A DNA stretch of 64,000 nucleotides, from positions 9,382-73,381 of the forward strand of contig CAZYEX010000108.1 of assembly GCA_964646605.1 (NCBI GenBank). Reading direction: 5' to 3'. Below, piece after piece: positions 2,943 through 61,071 of the stretch. The notes under the pieces were generated by a model, which saw nothing but the letters and a program-made list of their open reading frames with translations, made no database searches and was not told the DNA's origin. Both the position numbers and the translations under genes were made by a program. The stretch comes from an uncultured Phycisphaera sp. (GTDB taxonomy: Bacteria > Planctomycetota > Phycisphaerae > UBA1845). Positions within the stretch are counted from its first letter, which is position 1; each line of letters starts with the position of its first letter.

Positions 2943-3281
2943 TCACGCTCCGCCGCCGAGCATTTGCGAGAGGCCGGGGATGTTGAGGCCGCCGGTGAGA
3001 GCGCCGAGTTCCTGTTTCATGGCCTCCTGCGACTTGGCCACACCGGCTGCGACCGCCGCTTTGACCAAGTCTTCGAGGAGTTCCACGTCGCCGGTCGCCT
3101 GGGGGTCGATCTTGATGGCCACCAGCGACCCGCGACCATCGACCGTGGCCAGTACCAGCCCGCCGCCCGCCGCACCCTCAAAGCGCCGCGCCGCCAGATC
3201 TTCCTGGAGTTTGGCGAGGTTGGATTGCAGATCCTTGGCCGATTTCATCAGCCCGGCGAGATTTCCAAGACCACCCAGCAT
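2943..3281 (-). CDS. ybaB: YbaB/EbfC family nucleoid-associated DNA-binding protein
   Basis: 112 aa: MLGGLGNLAGLMKSAKDLQSNLAKLQEDLAARRFEGAAGGGLVLATVDGRGSLVAIKIDP... It sits in the classic position directly downstream of dnaX. Confidence 0.9.
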   Translation of the reverse strand: MLGGLGNLAGLMKSAKDLQSNLAKLQEDLAARRFEGAAGGGLVLATVDGRGSLVAIKIDPQATGDVELLEDLVKAAVAAGVAKSQEAMKQELGALTGGLNIPGLSQMLGGGA

Positions 3282-3287
3282 GATCGA

Positions 3288-4790
3288 TTACTCCGTTCCC
3301 AAAAGCGACGCTTCGCCCTCTTCGGATTCCGACGCGTCAGACCCGCCAGCGCCGTCCGGCGTCGTTGTCCCTTTCTCTCCGTCGGCGCCGACGATCTTCG
3401 TCGGGCGAACGTCGAGCAGCGTTCCGTCCACGGCCGCCTTTACCCGCTCCACCAACGGATCGCGGGCGGCGCGCTCCCACTCGGCTCGACGTGGAGGCGG
3501 CGCTGCCGTTGCCGTGCGGAGTTCCGCCCCCACGGACCCCGACCTCGATGCAGGCGCGGCCCCGACCTTCGCCGCCGCGTTGCCGGCGGGCCGAATCACG
3601 TCAACGTTTTTTTTTACGTCCCCGCCGCCCGTCGGCGCGCCCGCGACGCTGCCCCCTTCCGCCAAGCGCTCGAGAAGCTGCGTCAGATCGCTGAATTGAT
3701 GGGCCATGGCCAGCCGCGTGATCGCCGCGTCCGCCAGCGCTCGCGCCGCCCCGCTGTATTTCACGTTGCGACGCAACTCCTCCAGCAACGTAATCATGTA
3801 GACATACGTCGCGGCGTCGAACTTGGCGGACTGTTCGACCAGTCGCCCGCGCACGGTAGAGGCCGCGTCGACGAGGTCCGTCTCCGCTCCGCAGACACGC
3901 AGCAGCATCAGCGATCGAACATGGTCGATGAGATGGTCGCAGAATCGCTCGATGGTTCGACCGGTTTGCAGCGCTTGATCGAAGATCCGCAACGCCCCCG
4001 CGGCATCCCGCGACCCCAGACAATCCACCAGGGCCAGGGAAAGTTCGTCATGCGGCGGCGGCACGATTTCGTCCACCGAAGCCAGCGTCAGGCGATGGGC
4101 GTCGAAGGAGAGCAGTTGATCCAGCAGCGATAGCGCATCGCGCATCGAGCCGTTCGCCAACCGCGCCACCCGTCGCAGCGCCGCCTCCTCGGCCTCGACT
4201 CCCTCGACCTTGGCGATCCGCGCCAGATGCGCCGACATGGCCACGACCTCGATGGACTTGAAATCGAATCGCTGGCAGCGGCTGACGATCGTCGCGGGAA
4301 CCTTGTGGGCCTCGGTCGTGGCCAGGATGAACTTCACGTGCGAGGGCGGCTCCTCCAAGGTCTTGAGCAAGGCGTTGAAGGCCTGGGTGCTGAGCATGTG
4401 AACTTCGTCGATGATGTACACCTTGAAGCGCGCCCGGGCCGGGCGCAAGGTGGCGTTGCTGCGCAGCTCGCGGATGTTGTCCACGCCGGTGTTGCTGGCC
4501 GCGTCGATCTCCACCACGTCAATGTCCTGACCCTCGGCAACGGCCCGGCACGACTCGCACGTCCCGCAAGGCGTGGGGGTCGCCGCGGGGGCGGATAGAC
4601 AATTCAAGGCTTTGGCCAGAATGCGGGCCATCGACGTCTTGCCCACCCCGCGTGTGCCCGTGAAGAGATACCCGTGATGAATCCGACCGGAGCGGATCGC
4701 GTTGGTCAACGTCGTGGCGATGACCTCCTGCCCCACGACCTCCTCGAAGGTCGCGCTGCGATAGGCCCGAGCTAGTACGCGATAAGACAT
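3288..4790 (-). CDS. dnaX: DNA polymerase III subunit gamma/tau
   Basis: MSYRVLARAYRSATFEEVVGQE...GYLFTGTRGVGKTS (Walker A), a CGTCESC zinc module and IIDEVHMLS (Walker B). I place the start at ATG 4790. The 117 codons upstream in the 617-aa ORF look like translated non-coding sequence. Confidence 0.9.
   Translation of the reverse strand: MSYRVLARAYRSATFEEVVGQEVIATTLTNAIRSGRIHHGYLFTGTRGVGKTSMARILAKALNCLSAPAATPTPCGTCESCRAVAEGQDIDVVEIDAASNTGVDNIRELRSNATLRPARARFKVYIIDEVHMLSTQAFNALLKTLEEPPSHVKFILATTEAHKVPATIVSRCQRFDFKSIEVVAMSAHLARIAKVEGVEAEEAALRRVARLANGSMRDALSLLDQLLSFDAHRLTLASVDEIVPPPHDELSLALVDCLGSRDAAGALRIFDQALQTGRTIERFCDHLIDHVRSLMLLRVCGAETDLVDAASTVRGRLVEQSAKFDAATYVYMITLLEELRRNVKYSGAARALADAAITRLAMAHQFSDLTQLLERLAEGGSVAGAPTGGGDVKKNVDVIRPAGNAAAKVGAAPASRSGSVGAELRTATAAPPPRRAEWERAARDPLVERVKAAVDGTLLDVRPTKIVGADGEKGTTTPDGAGGSDASESEEGEASLLGTE
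3607..3615 (-). promoter_or_regulatory. A9 slippery run inside dnaX (candidate programmed frameshift / transcriptional slippage site that would make a short gamma form)
   Basis: The coding strand reads GAC GTA AAA AAA AAC GTT GAC GTG ATT. The -1 frame gives AAA CGT TGA and the +1 frame gives ACG TTG ACG TGA, so both alternative frames stop within 2-4 codons. The site is about 393 codons into the 501-codon gene. Confidence 0.5.
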
Positions 4791-5133
4791 CAGATTCTCG
4801 AACGCCCCGATCGTCAGTTCCTTGGTCGCACGGACAGTGGCCCGTTCATGCCCGTCCGCCCGCCGGACCATCCTATCCGGAAGCTCGCGTCCCCGAAACG
4901 ACCGTGGTTCAGGCCACCGGCCCCAACTTTTCGAGCCCTCGCACGCCGATCGCCCGCACGCCGAGGCCTGTATGTAGGGCGTTCCGGTTATCGGGCGACT
5001 AATGGCGAGCGATCGGGAATGAAGCTGGGAGTTTTCCGCCTCCGGCGTTATATTCGACGACACTTCCGACCGGGCTGGAAGCGGAGAGAAGAACATGGGC
5101 ACTTTTAACAGGACTGGAAACGGAGAGAAGAAC

Positions 5134-6945
5134 ATGCGCATTCAATTGGTCATTGGTTCCTTGATCGCACTCGTGGCCGTCGCACCCTCGCGGGGTGAGA
5201 TACCCTTAGGCACGGCCTTTACTTTTCACGGACAACTCAAAGAGGGCGGCGTGCCGCTCGAGGACACGGCCGACTTCGAGTTCACGCTGTGGGACGACGA
5301 GGGCAACGGCAATCCACCCGTGGGTGGTTTGCAAGTTGGCGGCGTGCAGGCGATCAACGCCCTGCCCGTCACCGCGGGCCTGTTCAGCGTTACGCTCAAC
5401 GACGGCGGCGAGTTCGGGGGCGATGCCTTCATCGGAAACGCCCGCTGGCTTCAGATCGCGGTGCGCAGTCCGGCGGGCGGCGGCGTCTTCACCACGCTCG
5501 CGCCGCGTCAGGCGCTGACGGCGACGCCTCACGCCCTACTCGCCCTGAACGCCCTGAACGCCGAGCAGTTGGGCGGCATCGACGCCATTGAATATGTTAC
5601 GACTGCAAACGCTGGAAACACATTTATTGAAAACGACACAGTCCAACAGCCGACCGCGAATTTCAATATTTCCGGCAATGGCACGGTTAGCAGTCTGAAC
5701 GCCAACGGCGCAGTTTCGTTGGGCGGCATCGCGCCACCGGCGGCGGCGCCCGCCGGGCAAGGACGAGTCTATTTCGACTCGGCGTCCAACAAAGTGAAAA
5801 TCTCCGAAAACAACGGTGCCTACGTTAATCTGATCGGCGCCGGCGGTGTCGGCGGCAGCGGCAACATTGGCAGCATTCCATATTGGAGCGGCGCCACGAC
5901 ATTAAGCGATTCTGTAATCACGCAAAACGCCAACGGCGTTCAACTGCCAAACGGCGTTCAATTGGCGGTAGGGGCACAGGGGAACCAGATGTCCTTCGGC
6001 TCACCCAACGGGGAAACAGGACTGTCCATCGCAGGGGCCAGCGGCAGGGCTGACGTCAGATTTGATGGCACAACACTTAGACTGAATGTTGGTCCGCCGG
6101 GCACACCGCCTTCGAATGGAATTGCTATCACTTCCACTGCCGTTAAGTTGCCAAACGGCGTTCAACTGGCGGTAGGGGCACAGGGTAACGCGGTCGCATT
6201 CGGCTCGCCAAACGGGGAAACAGGAATGACAATCGCGGGGGCCAACGGAAGAGCCGATCTTAGATTCGACGGCTCAACGCTCAGAATATTCAACGGTCCG
6301 GCAGGCACGCCGCCGGCAAACGGGATAGCTATAAACGCATCGGGCAACGTGGGCATCGGCACGACTACGCCGAATACCCGGTTAAGTTTGAGCGGCGGAC
6401 CCTCGTGGACTTCCAACTTCTGGACCGCCTCGATGAATTTACAAAATGCCTCAGCCATCGGTTGGGAGGCAAATGCCTCAGGACAGCTATACGGCATTGG
6501 CCACACTACCGGTGGATTGACTTTTTTCCGCACACCCAGCGTTTTTGGAAACAACAGTGCTCCGGCTAACTACGATATGATCATCACCGATACCGGCAAC
6601 ATTACGCAACCGCTCGCCAACAACGGTTTAGTCAAGGCAATGGCGTATGTTCGGGTCTACCGCGATTGTATTGGTGGAGTTTGCTCAGAACTAGTGCCGA
6701 GCATTGTACGTTGCTACAACTCCACCAACAACGCGACAAGCGGAAATTGCGGGTTCTCTTTCCCCAATGTTTACAGCTACGGTGTTGAGATCAACTTCGG
6801 CTTTCAAGTCGAAAATCGTTTTATTTCGCTGACAGCCAGCGATGGAGCCGGCACCGCCAGCGTCTATAATTTTCCAAACGCAAACACCGTTTATGTTCTC
6901 AACGGAAACGGTAACACGACCCAGTTTTTCATTTACATCTACTAG
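5134..6945 (+). CDS. secreted tail-fibre-like / repeat protein (mosaic)
   Basis: Signal peptide MRIQLVIGSLIALVAVAPSRG. The N-terminal module GTAFTFHGQLKEGGVP...ARWLQIAVR...PRQALTATPHA is paralogous to the 34352..36547 protein. There is an internal 68-aa tandem duplication and a GIGTTTPNTRLSLSG motif. An alternative in-frame ATG lies at 5095. Confidence 0.75.
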   Translation: MRIQLVIGSLIALVAVAPSRGEIPLGTAFTFHGQLKEGGVPLEDTADFEFTLWDDEGNGNPPVGGLQVGGVQAINALPVTAGLFSVTLNDGGEFGGDAFIGNARWLQIAVRSPAGGGVFTTLAPRQALTATPHALLALNALNAEQLGGIDAIEYVTTANAGNTFIENDTVQQPTANFNISGNGTVSSLNANGAVSLGGIAPPAAAPAGQGRVYFDSASNKVKISENNGAYVNLIGAGGVGGSGNIGSIPYWSGATTLSDSVITQNANGVQLPNGVQLAVGAQGNQMSFGSPNGETGLSIAGASGRADVRFDGTTLRLNVGPPGTPPSNGIAITSTAVKLPNGVQLAVGAQGNAVAFGSPNGETGMTIAGANGRADLRFDGSTLRIFNGPAGTPPANGIAINASGNVGIGTTTPNTRLSLSGGPSWTSNFWTASMNLQNASAIGWEANASGQLYGIGHTTGGLTFFRTPSVFGNNSAPANYDMIITDTGNITQPLANNGLVKAMAYVRVYRDCIGGVCSELVPSIVRCYNSTNNATSGNCGFSFPNVYSYGVEINFGFQVENRFISLTASDGAGTASVYNFPNANTVYVLNGNGNTTQFFIYIY

Positions 6946-9096: not shown

Positions 9097-9501
9097 TCAC
9101 CGACTGTGGAAGGAGAACCCACCGCGGTGGTGACGGCTGCCGTAACCGAAGCCCACGCTTATGCCGGAGGGTCGGTAGTAACCGTGACCGTAATGCACCG
9201 GGGCGTATGGCCGCTGGTACACGACCGGCGGATAGTATGCCGGGCGGTGCCCGTAAGTCACCGTCCGCACCGGGGCCGGGTAGGCATACGGCTGGGAGTA
9301 TACGACCGGCTGGGCATACACCACCGGCGACGAGTACACGACCGGCGCCGAATAGACCGGAGCGTTGTAGTAGTAACTCGGGACGTAACTCACGTACGTT
9401 CCGCAGGACCGGCGGTAATGGTCCGCGTTCGCCGAAGCGCTCCCCAGACCCAGAACTCCCGCGACCGCGACCAACCCCGCAACTTTCGTTTTGCCGAACA
9501 T
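9097..9501 (-). CDS. small secreted Tyr/Pro/Val-rich low-complexity protein
   Basis: AGGAG lies 7 nt upstream of the ATG. Signal peptide MFGKTKVAGLVAVAGVLGLGSASA. Degenerate repeats follow: PVYSAPVVYSSPVVYAQPVVYSQPYAYPAPV... Confidence 0.65.
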   Translation of the reverse strand: MFGKTKVAGLVAVAGVLGLGSASANADHYRRSCGTYVSYVPSYYYNAPVYSAPVVYSSPVVYAQPVVYSQPYAYPAPVRTVTYGHRPAYYPPVVYQRPYAPVHYGHGYYRPSGISVGFGYGSRHHRGGFSFHSR

Positions 9502-57305: not shown

Positions 57306-57671
57306 AAACAGGTAAAAGACCTGCTTTGGGCAATTCATTGTCAAACGGGGCGACATTCTGATTTTCGCGCCGCGAAAGACCCCAAGCTCAAGAAACGCAC
57401 GCTGACCAACCTGTACAACGAACGCCCGACGTGGCTGCGGCTGCTGCACGAACAGCTCGACCGGGCCGTGCTGGCCGCTTACGCCGCGACCGACCCCGAG
57501 GGCGAGTGGTCCGAGGACTGGGCGCGGGTGTGGGTCGATACCGGGGCCGGGCAGCCGCTCCCCGCCGACCACGAACTCACCGATCTGCGCAAGGAGACCG
57601 ACCAGCGCGTGCTGGCGAACCTGTTGCGGATGAACCTTGACCGGGGCGAAGATTCGGTTCAAGCGGTATGA
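57306..57671 (+). pseudogene. 3'-terminal remnant of an MmeI-type (type IIL/IIG) RM enzyme / N6-adenine DNA methyltransferase
   Basis: The open frame from 57306 reads ...DPKLKKRTLTNLYNERPTWLRLLHEQLDRAVLAAYAATDPEGEWSEDW...DQRVLANLLRMNLDRGE followed by a stop. 'RTLTNLYNeRPtWL...H..LD.AV..AYgw' and '...iL..LL.LNleR' are the C-terminal signature of that family as I recall it. The ~800 aa expected upstream are missing. Confidence 0.65.
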
Positions 57672-57701
57672 GCGCACACCATCTCGGTGATGCCGCGGTT
57701 C

Positions 57702-57793
57702 GACCCTCACCCCCGGCGCTTCCCTTGAGGGGGAGACTGTGGAGACGGCATGTCCGCGGGCTTGCCCTTGAGGCTTCGCGTAAAGGGGAGCCG
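57702..57793. repeat. composite of a family 1 (GACCCTCACCCCC...) and a family 2 (41-mer) intergenic repeat
   Basis: Family 1-like at 57702-57740. The family 2 copy at 57753-57793 matches 37327-37367 at 38 of 41 positions. Confidence 0.7.
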
Positions 57794-57954
57794 CTTGGGG
57801 TTCGGACGGGGCGCTCGGTGGCCGAGGCGAATTCCACCGATCACCCCGCGCGTTATCTAGGTTGGATGAACAGCCCTCGCTCATTCCGCCCCATCTCCCG
57901 CCCGAACCCGTCTGTCCCCTTCAGTCTTCAAACTTCCGTCTTCAGTCTCCGTCC

Positions 57955-58275
57955 TTCAATCGGCAATTGGCAATCGAGAGTCCCACCATCGCTATTTTCC
58001 CATCGTGGTTCGGCGTCCAACACCGCTCCCTCACGGTCGCGGCTCGGATCGGCGCCGCGCGCAAAAAAAAGATACCAAACGAAGCCATTCAAAAGTGTCG
58101 CTGCACAGGGAAACCCCTCTAGCAAGGTCAGACTTGGGTTTGGTGCCGCTTATGTCGGTCCTGATCAATCGGCAATTGGAACTCGGCAATCGGCAATCAA
58201 TCGTGTCGCTTCCGCTTCACGCTCGGATCCGCTCCGCGCTAGCGGTCGGGGCTCGGATGGGTGCGCGCCGCATGA
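57955..58275. repeat. two ~200-bp composite repeat units (CAATCGGCAAT tract ... GCTCGGATnnGCnCCGCGC)
   Basis: CAATCGGCAATTGGCAATCG lies at 57958-57983 and CAATCGGCAATTGGAACTCGGCAATCGGCAATCAATCG at 58166-58203. Each is followed 50-70 nt later by a GGCTCGGAT...CCGCGC element (58031-58052, 58221-58240, 58250-58272). No convincing ORF. Confidence 0.6.
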
Positions 58276-58482
58276 CCCTTGACGCTGCGCGTAAAGGGCG
58301 GGCTGCGACGGGTCGACGTGGCGGCCGACCCGCGCCGGGAGAAAATGACTCCAGAGCCTTCCGTCTTCGTCACCGGTGGATGAATTCATCGGCGCCGCCC
58401 TCTGGACCCACCGCCGGACCTATTCACCGTATCTGCGGTTTTCTGCGCTCCGACGGCGTGCATCCGGGGGACAATCGCTTCG

Positions 58483-61071
58483 TCAACGTTCCGGCGGGGG
58501 CGATGCCTCGAGCTTCGCGCGATATTCGGCGGCCAAGTCCGGCTTGCCCCAGGCATCATAGAGATCGACGATCCTCTGGAGGGCTCTGATCGAGTCTTCG
58601 TCCTGTTCACCGTGGGCGGCTTGGAGGACCGGGTAACTGTTCGTGAGAAGCGGCTCAGCCTCGTCATACTGGCGCAGATCGGCCAAGCATCGACCGAGGA
58701 GACTTTCGGTGTAGGCGATACGCCAATGCTTCTCGGGTAGAGTTTTCAGTTGGATCGCAAGGGCTTCGCGCAAGGCGGCCTGCGCGCCCTCCGGATCGCC
58801 CTTCGCGGCGAGCACGTCCCCCAAGAGAACGAGTATGTACATGAGAGACACGGGCTGCGGCACTCGGAGCTTTCGATGTATACTTACGGCCTCGCGGACC
58901 AGCGGCTCGGCAGAGGCAACGTCGCCCTTTTTCCTCAAATATAAGTCCGCCAGGTTATTGAGGATCTCAGCCTCCGTGCCTTGGCCTCCAGGCGACTTCC
59001 GGGCGATGGCCAACGCTTCGAGGTAAAGTCGCTCGGCCTCGTCGTCGTTACCTTTTTCCTGCAGACTCATCGCCAGGCGGTTATGTGAAGTGGCTATGTT
59101 GCGGTGCTCTCGGGGCAAGATGGTCACATTCTGGCTCAGAGCCTCGCGAAGTCCGCTTTCCGCCTCGTCGTAGCTCCCCTTTTTCTGGAGCACCATCGCC
59201 AAGTTGCTGCGCGATATATTTACGTCGGGGTGTTCGTCGCCCAGAAGCCTCCGCCGAATCGCCAGGGCCTCGCGAAACAGCCTTTCCGCTTCGTCGTACT
59301 CGTCTCTGTTGAGGAGCACCGTCCCAAGATAGTTCAAGGACCTGGCCACGTTCACGTGATCGTTACCGAGATGCCGCCGAAGGCTTGTCAGGGCCTGGCG
59401 GAGTAGTGATTCCGCGGTCCTGAAGTCGCCCTGCCACTGCAACGTCCACGCTACGGAGGCAAGCGTTGCGGCGACGTCCGGGTGGTCCTCGCCCAGCATC
59501 CGCTCGCGTATCAGCAGCGCCCGCCGTAAGAGCGACTCGGCGGTCGCAAAGTCGCGCTTCTGCACCATCAGCCAAGCGAGGTCCTCTAACGCCCGCGCCA
59601 CTTCGACTTCTTCTTTTCCAAAGAGGCGCTCACGGATTTCCAAAGCATTGCGAAGTTGCGCTTCTGCCGGTTCATAAAGTCCCAACGCGCAATACGTACT
59701 GCCAATTGTGGAGCGCACCGCAGCCTCGGTTTCGGGCTCGTTCCGTAGAGATCCCTGGTCGACCCGATTCGCTGCCGCGTCTAGTGCCGTCCGGACGGTG
59801 ACGTCTGGACCGAGCAGCTTGTCCGGGTTGGCCGAGGAAAGCATTTCCTGAAGAAACGTATTCACCGCTTCGGCAACTTTGCGTTGCCGGCCTTCATTCA
59901 ACTGCGCATATTCGGCCTGACGCCACAAGGTCAGGGAAGTAATGAAACCGACGGTCACAACCAGGACAAATCCGGCGGCAATCGTGGCCGCAAGCCTGAA
60001 TCTACGGAGTTGCTTGAAGAGAACGTAGCGAATGGAATCGCGTTTGGCTTCGATCGGGTCGCCTGCCAGGTAGTGCCGGACGTCGCGGGCGAGTTCGCCC
60101 GCCATCTGGTACCGGCGTTCGCGCTCCTTGGCCAGGCACTTCAGTATGATCGTGTCCACTTCGTCATTGAGACCTCTTCGGATCGCGCTGGGACGGTTGG
60201 GCTCTGCTATTTGGATTCTGGCGAGAACCTCGCGCATGCTTCCGGTGACGTCGTAGGGCAACTTTCCGGTGAGCATCTGGAAGAGAATCACCCCGAGCGA
60301 GTAGACGTCGGTGCGCGTGTCGATGTTGGAGAGGATGCCCTCGGCCTGCTCCGGCGACGCCCAGGGGGGCGATCCCACGAAGGCCCCCGTCATGGTCATC
60401 ATCGACGCATCCGCTGATCCCGCGGGCAACTTCGCCAGCCCGAAGTCGAGAATGTGGGGTTCGCTGTTCCCGTCGATTCGAATGTTCCCAGGTTTCAGAT
60501 CGCGGTGAATGACTCCGCGTACATGGGCGGCGTTGACTGCGTCGCAGATCGCCGCGAACAAGCGCAACGTCTCCTCGACGCCGCGTTGCCCGCCGGCCAT
60601 ATGGACGTCGAGCGGCTGGCCGCTGATGTAATCCATCACGAAGTATTGGTGACCGGCCGCCACCCCCGTGTCGTGAATCGCGACAATGTTCGGATGCTGC
60701 AACTGGGCGAGGACCTGGACCTCTCGCTCGAAGCGCCCCCTATCCGCGGTGCTGGCGAAAGGGCCCTCCTTCATGACCTTGATCGCGACCTTGCGTTTGG
60801 TCGACTTCTGAATAGCCTGGTACACGACGCCCTGCCCGCCGCGGTGAATCTCGCGGATGAGTTGGTAACCTGTGAATGAATCGGGCGGCGGTCCGTCGGA
60901 TTGCAGATCGCCGGAAAGCGCAGGAGGTCCCGGCGAAACGCCGTCTGACATCCGCCTCGCACTGCTGACATGTGCAAGCCGGGCGTGTACCGCCTGGGCG
61001 CAGGCGTCCTGGATCAGGCGATTCTGCCGGGCCTGCACCTCCGCATCTGGTTCAAGGATGCCGCCGGTCAT
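58483..61071 (-). CDS. Ser/Thr protein kinase with one TM helix and a long C-terminal TPR array
   Basis: Kinase motifs GGQGVVYQAIQKSTKRKVAIKVMK, HRDLKPGNI, DFGLAK and SPEQAEG. A TM segment RLAATIAAGFVLVVTVGFITSL. About 12 or more TPR_10/12-like units follow (ALNNLA..Y...G.Y.EAE.L..EAL). Confidence 0.9.
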   Translation of the reverse strand: MTGGILEPDAEVQARQNRLIQDACAQAVHARLAHVSSARRMSDGVSPGPPALSGDLQSDGPPPDSFTGYQLIREIHRGGQGVVYQAIQKSTKRKVAIKVMKEGPFASTADRGRFEREVQVLAQLQHPNIVAIHDTGVAAGHQYFVMDYISGQPLDVHMAGGQRGVEETLRLFAAICDAVNAAHVRGVIHRDLKPGNIRIDGNSEPHILDFGLAKLPAGSADASMMTMTGAFVGSPPWASPEQAEGILSNIDTRTDVYSLGVILFQMLTGKLPYDVTGSMREVLARIQIAEPNRPSAIRRGLNDEVDTIILKCLAKERERRYQMAGELARDVRHYLAGDPIEAKRDSIRYVLFKQLRRFRLAATIAAGFVLVVTVGFITSLTLWRQAEYAQLNEGRQRKVAEAVNTFLQEMLSSANPDKLLGPDVTVRTALDAAANRVDQGSLRNEPETEAAVRSTIGSTYCALGLYEPAEAQLRNALEIRERLFGKEEVEVARALEDLAWLMVQKRDFATAESLLRRALLIRERMLGEDHPDVAATLASVAWTLQWQGDFRTAESLLRQALTSLRRHLGNDHVNVARSLNYLGTVLLNRDEYDEAERLFREALAIRRRLLGDEHPDVNISRSNLAMVLQKKGSYDEAESGLREALSQNVTILPREHRNIATSHNRLAMSLQEKGNDDEAERLYLEALAIARKSPGGQGTEAEILNNLADLYLRKKGDVASAEPLVREAVSIHRKLRVPQPVSLMYILVLLGDVLAAKGDPEGAQAALREALAIQLKTLPEKHWRIAYTESLLGRCLADLRQYDEAEPLLTNSYPVLQAAHGEQDEDSIRALQRIVDLYDAWGKPDLAAEYRAKLEASPPPER

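Follow-up and report, generated by a model that had tools for sequence, protein, structure and literature searches.

Our data point toward a programmed transcriptional slippage site in the dnaX gene of an uncultured planctomycete. The gene, which encodes the tau/gamma subunit of the clamp loader, lies on the minus strand of a 64,000-nucleotide stretch of DNA (positions 9,382 to 73,381 of contig CAZYEX010000108.1, GenBank assembly GCA_964646605.1; hereafter, the window) from an uncultured Phycisphaera sp. (Planctomycetota, Phycisphaerae), and its coding strand carries nine consecutive A's that are followed within a few codons by stops in both alternative reading frames. We consider it likely, with a probability of about 0.68, that this A9 run is a slippage site of the type known from Thermus thermophilus, which would give rise to a full-length tau (53 kDa) and to a shorter, gamma-like product (43 kDa). 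That the run is a functional recoding site by whatever route is highly probable. Programmed slippage yielding a gamma-like DnaX had been proposed in an initial annotation of the window, and the proposal gains support from the presence of the run in 37 of 50 related loci, from the enrichment of out-of-frame stops behind it, from three relatives with the reciprocal gene layout, and from the placement of the site within the protein.

The run is read directly from the sequence, as T9 on the plus strand and hence as A9 on the coding strand, in the context GGG GAC GTA AAA AAA AAC GTT GAC GTG ATT (G D V392 K393 K394 N395 V D V I), followed by CGG. Beyond the run, another 106 codons pass before the zero frame ends. 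In the −1 frame, which is also the frame of an mRNA with 10 A's, the sequence reads GTA AAA AAA AAA CGT TGA, and in the +1 frame (an mRNA with 8 A's), it reads GTA AAA AAA ACG TTG ACG TGA (Table 1). The first of the two TGA codons would end the products of an mRNA with one additional A or of a −1 ribosomal shift, and the second would end those of mRNAs that have lost one A or gained two; the calculated masses of the short products are 42.9 kDa (396 amino acids) and 43.0 kDa (397 amino acids). Both out-of-frame readings (AAA CGT TGA and ACG TTG ACG TGA) agree with the initial annotation, and so do the position of the site, which had been given as about 393 codons into a 501-codon gene (codons 392 to 395 of 500 plus the stop), and the estimate of about 42 kDa for the short product. 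The genome had been described as having a GC content of about 65%; the high GC content stands, but the exact figure does not (62.9% in the window). The A9 in dnaX is the sole A/T run of at least nine nucleotides in the 64 kb, with an expectation of 0.03 for independent and identically distributed bases, and given the peptide V-K-K-N and the codon usage of the window (AAA for 38% of Lys and GTA for 8.5% of Val codons), the chance of an A9 at this place is about 0.012. The second-longest A/T homopolymer of the window, an A8 run at 58063-58070 on the plus strand, overlaps two mechanically called open reading frames of that strand (ORFs; 57668-58282 and 58005-58589).

The run is retained in relatives. 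A protein search returned DnaX proteins from metagenome-assembled genomes (MAGs) of Phycisphaerae and other Planctomycetota with 58 to 73% identity, and among the 120 matches listed, most show KKN or KKK at the place that corresponds to the site (around residue 393). At the nucleotide level, metagenomes scanned with a C-terminal alignment specific to the clade yielded 54 loci, and the clade set analyzed below comprises 50 nonredundant dnaX loci, i.e., the window and 49 others with 53 to 74% identity. At the homologous linker position, 23 of these have A10, 14 have A9, one has A8, two have A7, two have A6, and eight have no run; thus, A9 or A10 is found in 37 of 50 loci at the slip site, with the flanking linker otherwise unalignable. 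Of 101 Lys codons at the site, 95 (94%) are AAA, compared to 26% elsewhere in the same genes, and in 212 kb of clade loci, 37 A/T runs of at least eight nucleotides fall on the dnaX site and only two elsewhere, both of length 8. The base preceding the Lys codons at the site is A whatever the preceding amino acid (V, S, I, A, or G), and the run is found after these and further amino acids (L and others) and in each of the three codon phases. Since phases and preceding amino acids differ, it is the nucleotide string that is conserved and not the peptide alone. On a 629-kb contig (L138), for example, an A9 at codon 392 is followed by stops after 3 codons in the −1 frame and after 6 codons in the +1 frame. 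A G-rich segment of 20 nucleotides upstream of the run was seen in the window (3616-3640, minus strand) and at homologous loci, and an acidic codon (GAC, GAT, or GAG) commonly stands two codons before the run in the window and in the clade loci.

The out-of-frame stops are conserved as well. In the 34 single-ORF clade loci with A9 or A10, the −1 frame is closed within 4 codons in 29 cases (median, 3 codons), whereas a null distribution drawn from every codon position in these genes has its median at 40 codons and gives a probability of 0.083 for a stop within that distance; the binomial p value of 7e-27, like that of 8e-25 obtained with a null restricted to the linker, overstates the number of independent events, because the loci share ancestry (over both nulls, the medians are 29 to 40 codons and the probabilities are 0.08 to 0.10). 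The +1 frame is closed within 13 codons in 31 of the 34 loci (median, 7 codons) versus a probability of 0.32 and a median of 24 codons for all codon positions (binomial p = 1e-12; linker-only null, p = 2e-14; null medians of 24 to 30 codons over both nulls), with the same reservation for the p values. The identity of the stop (TGA, TAG, or TAA) and its exact position vary among the loci, and therefore, the stops appear to have been maintained repeatedly. By this comparative evidence, the run and both out-of-frame stops are under strong purifying selection across the clade. Retention of the A run and of the flanking stops in related genomes had both been named beforehand as checks on the slippage proposal, and both were found.

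For a background beyond the clade, genomes were scanned with a full-length DnaX alignment, which recovered mostly distant phyla; the following counts refer to the matches listed. A run of at least eight A's after domain III is present in 15 of 19 assessable dnaX genes of Planctomycetota (14 of them with A9 or A10), including members of the Sedimentisphaerales, Tepidisphaeraceae, Planctomycetaceae, and Pirellulales as well as Gemmata, and in other phyla, A9 or longer occurs anywhere in dnaX in 6 of 60 genes. Long A runs after domain III were also noticed in a Leptospira biflexa MAG (L043; A9 at codon 418 and again at codon 450), in a member of the Fibrobacteria (L061; A11), in a member of the Desulfobacteraceae (L056; A10), and in a member of the Clostridia (L064; A9 and A10), with out-of-frame stops near most of these runs.

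Could the run serve only the protein, as the code for a conserved linker patch of Lys-Lys(-Lys/Asn) such as an interaction or protease site, with incidental stops and a short DnaX generated by proteolysis as in Caulobacter? The K-K pair is indeed conserved at the protein level, and some lineages keep it with a decayed run (A7 in L084 and A6 in L085). Furthermore, gamma formation by proteolysis is known in Caulobacter (bioRxiv 10.1101/2022.11.10.516041). However, a need for lysines explains neither the near-exclusive use of AAA at the site, compared to its modest share in the rest of the same genes, nor the A in front of the Lys codons whatever the preceding amino acid, nor the presence of the run in all three codon phases. 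Stops are enriched in both alternative frames, and the relatives with a split gene, which are described next, would be left without the essential C terminus unless slippage takes place. We therefore regard the absence of recoding as very improbable.

Three relatives (L118, L128, and L131) have the reciprocal layout. Each carries an A10 run (at 2707-2716, 2709-2718, and 2689-2698 of the respective locus), an in-frame stop 4 to 7 codons behind it, and then an open −1 frame of 92 to 124 codons, which holds the conserved C-terminal motif of DnaX (e.g., ...WKDAVRHPLVQRVQQAVDGTIVHVRR...). This two-ORF layout is not found in the window, where the zero frame runs on to the tau C terminus. If the assemblies are correct, tau would be reachable in these three relatives only by slippage at the run, and because tau is essential (bioRxiv 10.1101/2022.11.10.516041), slippage there would have to be efficient. 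A novel type of dnaX structure has been described by Antonov et al. (2013; PMC3711429) for 17 genes from 12 genera in which the tau reading frame is interrupted by a −1 shift at the DNA level; A10 is present in nine of these genes. Gene, poly(A) motif, and position are the same as here, and the three relatives match that type exactly, whereas the window has a single-ORF dnaX with tau in frame and gamma by the proposed slippage; both forms thus occur in one clade.

These three loci come from metagenome assemblies, and homopolymer miscalls are possible in principle. More generally, one may ask whether the A9, A10, and two-ORF variants reflect a homopolymer that is hypermutable at the DNA level or an assembly artifact, given that homopolymers are prone to insertions and deletions and that metagenome assemblies are the source of both the variants in run length and the three loci with a broken frame. 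This explanation is very improbable. Thirty-seven independent assemblies, from many samples, contain the run, which is also found on the 629-kb contig mentioned above and on a 1.19-Mb Gemmata scaffold (L019), and errors would not create conserved stops in both frames. Heritable frameshifts in dnaX, an essential gene, would be lethal unless compensated for at decoding, and the two-ORF loci share A10 and the −1 geometry with those reported from finished genomes (PMC3711429).

According to our model, RNA polymerase would slip on the T9 template, where the all-A:T RNA-DNA hybrid can realign, and dnaX mRNAs with 9, 10, 11, or 8 A's would result. Transcripts with 9 A's (or 9 ± 3n) would be translated into the full-length, tau-like DnaX of 500 amino acids. 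Transcripts with one extra A would lead the ribosome to the TGA two codons on (...VKKKR), and those with two extra A's or one A fewer would lead it to the TGA three codons on (...VKKTLT). Either way, the product would be a gamma-like protein of 43 kDa that consists of domains I to III and about 15 linker residues, without the C-terminal motif.

We infer both the level of the slip (transcription rather than translation) and its efficiency, and if the site is used for recoding, transcriptional slippage is probably the main route. Run lengths in the clade peak at 9 to 10 A's. The RNA-DNA hybrid in RNA polymerase is about 9 to 10 base pairs long, and bacterial RNA polymerases slip on runs of about nine A's or T's; a −1 ribosomal shift needs only seven A's. 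Transcriptional slippage is thus favored because the run is held at 9 to 10 nucleotides although 7 would suffice for the ribosome, and because the +1 stop is conserved too, for which a −1 shift gives no reason. The lack of a conserved 3′ structure and of a match to the covariance model of the E. coli dnaX frameshift element argues in the same direction. In the 37 loci with A9 or A10, the downstream 45 nucleotides fold with the same energy as control windows taken from their own genes (median percentile, 0.52; p = 0.37 by the Mann-Whitney test), and the 62 nucleotides downstream of the run in the window (−25.3 kcal/mol; z = +0.93 versus dinucleotide shuffles) have no unusual structure. The Rfam model RF00382 gave no match at E ≤ 10 in window positions 3300 to 3900, and the positive control, E. 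coli dnaX, scored 96.8 bits. The T9 on the plus strand was also considered as part of an antisense intrinsic terminator, a candidate that was discarded since no terminator- or promoter-like site was found in 3300-3900.

The alternative to be taken most seriously is a programmed −1 ribosomal frameshift on A_AAA_AAA (codons 392 to 394), which would end at the TGA at 3603-3601 and would yield ...VKKKR from a homogeneous mRNA, as in E. coli dnaX. An in-frame heptamer of the X_XXY_YYZ type is present, the stop in the −1 frame is conserved more tightly than the other (within 4 codons in 29 of 34 loci), and complementarity to the anti-Shine-Dalgarno (anti-SD) sequence is weakly enriched upstream of the run. 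In addition, both mechanisms are in use among dnaX orthologs (PMC3711429). A more distant dnaX (L133; 52% identity) even has a layout that fits ribosomal shifting better than transcriptional slippage: its run is only A7 (1439-1445), followed by CCA TAG, and the −1 frame encodes a long tau C terminus ending in ...NPLVIHAMQALGATIRTIRP. This locus is a candidate for a ribosomal −1 frameshift version of the two-ORF layout. An A7 run was also seen in L132 (2707-2713), which, like L133, is a more distant dnaX. For the window, however, a ribosomal −1 shift leaves unexplained why 9 to 10 A's are kept where 7 are enough and why +1 stops are so strongly enriched (p of about 1e-13). A conserved 3′ hairpin and a match to RF00382 are missing, the SD-like cores have no consistent position, and A_AAA_AAA is far less shift-prone than A_AAA_AAG in E. 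coli assays (PMC5009743). The heptamer A_AAA_AAG itself does not occur at the site in the window (GTA AAA AAA AAC), where the in-frame heptamer is A_AAA_AAA. We therefore consider ribosomal frameshifting as the main route unlikely, albeit clearly more plausible than the absence of recoding or an artifact.

Besides the shared ancestry of the loci and the metagenomic origin of the two-ORF relatives, several observations weigh against transcriptional slippage as proposed here. A −1 ribosomal frameshift at the in-frame A_AAA_AAA within the A9 would give a ...VKKKR product identical to that of an mRNA with one extra A. Pairing of the 20 nucleotides upstream of the run with the anti-SD sequence is slightly above that of controls (p = 1e-4 against the whole gene and 0.002 against the linker); canonical GGAG, GAGG, or AGGA cores are found in only 10 of 37 loci, at spacings of −5 to −14, and not in the window. 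The first 45 nucleotides downstream of the run in the window fold fairly stably (−18.6 kcal/mol, the 8th percentile of its own gene). Finally, a run of at least nine A's is absent from 13 of the 50 clade loci and from the complete Phycisphaerales genome CP070744.1 (L137), and hence, the feature is dispensable in some lineages. The dnaX gene of CP070744.1 (201-1667) has no A run of six or more, and its protein keeps ...RKKTN..., which marks this genome as a lineage that, judging from its gene, lost the slippery run. A further point concerns the C-terminal motif: on E. coli tau, its profile reaches −1.6 to −1.9 bits, a score that shuffled sequences also attain.

The placement of the site fits the transcriptional slippage that we propose. 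The gene is dnaX: the 500-amino-acid product (53.2 kDa; 500 codons plus the stop) matches NCBIfam TIGR02397 (dnaX_nterm; 426.5 bits, cutoff of 250), PRK05563 (471.8 bits, cutoff of 400), and the Pfam families DNA_pol3_delta2 (PF13177), DNAX_ATPase_lid (PF22608), and DNA_pol3_gamma3 (PF12169), and a Foldseek search with an AlphaFold (AF2) model, which was built from 60 homologs, aligned residues 1 to about 365 with the gamma/tau chains of the E. coli clamp loader (E = 1.7e-27, 40% identity). The start was assigned to the ATG at 4790 (MSYRVLARAYR), which is matched by the homolog alignment and by E. coli MSYQVLARKWR; the mechanically called ORF around the gene reaches upstream to 5141. Domain III ends at residue 376 according to Pfam (PF12169), and the AF2 model is confident through a helix at residues 366 to 377; for residues 380 to 426, the predicted local distance difference test (pLDDT) score is below 50. 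In an alignment of 60 homologs (60 to 74% identity), the consensus of the linker is "x" nearly throughout about 70 columns, one P aside, except for the K-K at the slip site. Pfam, alignment, and AF2 thus agree that the site lies after domain III and, as had been stated at the outset, before a conserved C-terminal segment. Because the site sits in a disordered linker just past domain III, a stop at the run would, according to the alignment and the model, give a complete domain I to III protein with a linker stub of about 15 residues and without the C-terminal motif.

What would be missing from the short form is the DnaX C-terminal extension of about 105 amino acids, which contains a single conserved two-helix motif. 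Its consensus, ...WERAARDPLVQRVKEAVDGTLxDVRP... (residues ca. 430 to 462), is conserved in the 60-homolog alignment, and AF2 predicts two short helices in it (435-442 and 445-454; pLDDT, 73 to 85), followed by a disordered acidic tail. An iterated profile search retrieved the motif from the C termini of DnaX proteins of Brocadiia, Acidobacteriota, Nitrospirota, and Desulfobacterota, and therefore, it is a widespread C-terminal module of DnaX. For this C terminus, a Pfam search gave no match at E ≤ 10 and a sequence search of the PDB gave no meaningful match. An apparent likeness to the C terminus of E. coli tau (...DNNIQTLRRFFDAELDEESIRPI) was not borne out: BLASTP, a comparison of profile scores with shuffled sequences, and four rounds of profile searching gave nothing significant. 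In E. coli, domain IV of tau binds DnaB and domain V binds the alpha subunit of polymerase III (Pol III alpha), and gamma, which is devoid of both domains, does not bind the polymerase tightly (PMC11470591; PMC4756838). Position and conservation suggest that the motif at residues 430 to 462 is the tau-specific module that binds Pol III alpha; given such a role, the short form would be expected to behave like gamma.

The closest precedent is T. thermophilus, in which A9 on the sense strand of dnaX leads to transcripts that vary in the number of A's (Larsen et al. 2000 PNAS 97:1683), nearby stops close both nonzero frames, and gamma is made at about 1:1 with tau; the comparison is based on the secondary descriptions in PMC1088944 and PMC5009743. 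Shared with Thermus, as far as these descriptions go, are the sense-strand A9, tau encoded by a single ORF, and the close stops in both nonzero frames, and further the placement after the clamp-loader core and before the tau-specific C terminus, with a short, gamma-like domain I to III product that is predicted here. The two differ in phylum, in the position of the site (about 78% of dnaX in the window compared to "seven-eighths" in the descriptions of Thermus), and in the C-terminal extension, which is very short in the window, with only about 30 conserved amino acids. The −1 frameshift element of E. coli dnaX (RF00382) shares the gene, the outcome (tau and a truncated gamma, the latter predicted in the window), and an A-rich site shortly past domain III with a −1 stop within 1 to 2 codons. 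In contrast to E. coli, the window has A9 instead of A_AAA_AAG, and it lacks a conserved 3′ stem-loop, a match to the covariance model, and a canonical SD core upstream of the run. Processing by ClpXP in Caulobacter crescentus (bioRxiv 10.1101/2022.11.10.516041) is another route to tau and gamma from one dnaX; it is posttranslational and needs neither a slippery motif nor out-of-frame stops.

Table 1. Features of the dnaX region (window coordinates)
Feature	Position	Strand	Description	Basis
dnaX coding sequence	3288..4790	-	Zero frame, tau-like full-length product	ORF list, Pfam, NCBIfam, Foldseek
Region encoding clamp-loader domains I-III	3657..4790	-	Residues 1-378; in both predicted products	Pfam, AF2
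Hypervariable linker	3504..3656	-	Residues 379-429; predicted disordered; holds the slip site	AF2, alignment
A9 slippery run (putative)	3607..3615	-	(GT)A AAA AAA AA(C), codons 392-395	Sequence
-1-frame TGA	3601..3603	-	Two codons past A9; predicted product ...VKKKR, 396 aa	Sequence
+1-frame TGA	3596..3598	-	Three codons past A9; predicted product ...VKKTLT, 397 aa	Sequence
Conserved C-terminal motif	3405..3503	-	Residues 430-462, ...AEWERAARDPLVERVKAAVDGTLLDVRP...; full-length product only	60-homolog alignment, AF2
ybaB/ebfC	2943..3281	-	Directly downstream of dnaX; usual dnaX-ybaB pair	Pfam PF02575, TIGR00103

The ybaB/ebfC gene also comes next after dnaX in CP070744.1 (L137) and on the 629-kb contig (L138). 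Divergent from dnaX lies a 616-amino-acid ORF (5095-6945, plus strand) with a hydrophobic segment at its N terminus and repeats in its interior (...LPNGVQLAVGAQGN.V.FGSPNGETG...RAD.RFDG.TLR...), which probably encodes a secreted repeat protein. A 196-amino-acid ORF at 1792-2382 on the minus strand has motifs of C5-cytosine DNA methyltransferases (ELFAGAGGLT... and GGPPCQPFS); it is far smaller than a normal enzyme of this kind, and the gene may thus have been truncated or frameshifted.

For other phyla, the literature already covers the mechanism, the gene, and even the reversed architecture, and a specialist in recoding would be more likely to expect the case than to be surprised by it; its use lies in annotation and in a comparative approach to the purpose of gamma. 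In a full-text literature search that combined dnaX, Planctomycetes, and slippage, the only paper found was that of Antonov et al., in which the phylum is present only in a table of genome counts, and the breadth of slippage-type dnaX in Planctomycetota appears to be unreported in the literature searched.

Why bacteria make a truncated DnaX (gamma) beside tau has been debated for over 30 years. The importance of gamma is argued chiefly from the different routes by which unrelated lineages came to produce it, namely, ribosomal frameshifting, transcriptional slippage, and proteolysis. To this argument, the present case adds a deep and well-sampled clade (the Phycisphaerae and, more broadly, the Planctomycetota) in which the run and both stops are under clear selection and in which both layouts are present. 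In practical terms, dnaX in genomes of Phycisphaerae and other Planctomycetota should carry a two-product annotation, and where such MAGs show an apparent dnaX "frameshift" at A10, neither a pseudogene nor an assembly error should be called. Molecular genetics is little developed in this phylum, for which the site offers a simple, testable reporter of slippage by RNA polymerase. Tentatively, and with odds that we put slightly below even, Thermus-type slippage may be ancestral across the Planctomycetota, in view of the runs of at least eight A's in 15 of 19 assessable genomes from Phycisphaerae, Sedimentisphaerales, Planctomycetia, and Gemmata, and close to 50% efficient, so that single-base changes in the run would let lineages switch over and over between an in-frame tau with gamma from slippage and the reverse. 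If this were true, the Planctomycetota would be a natural experiment on why bacteria keep gamma.

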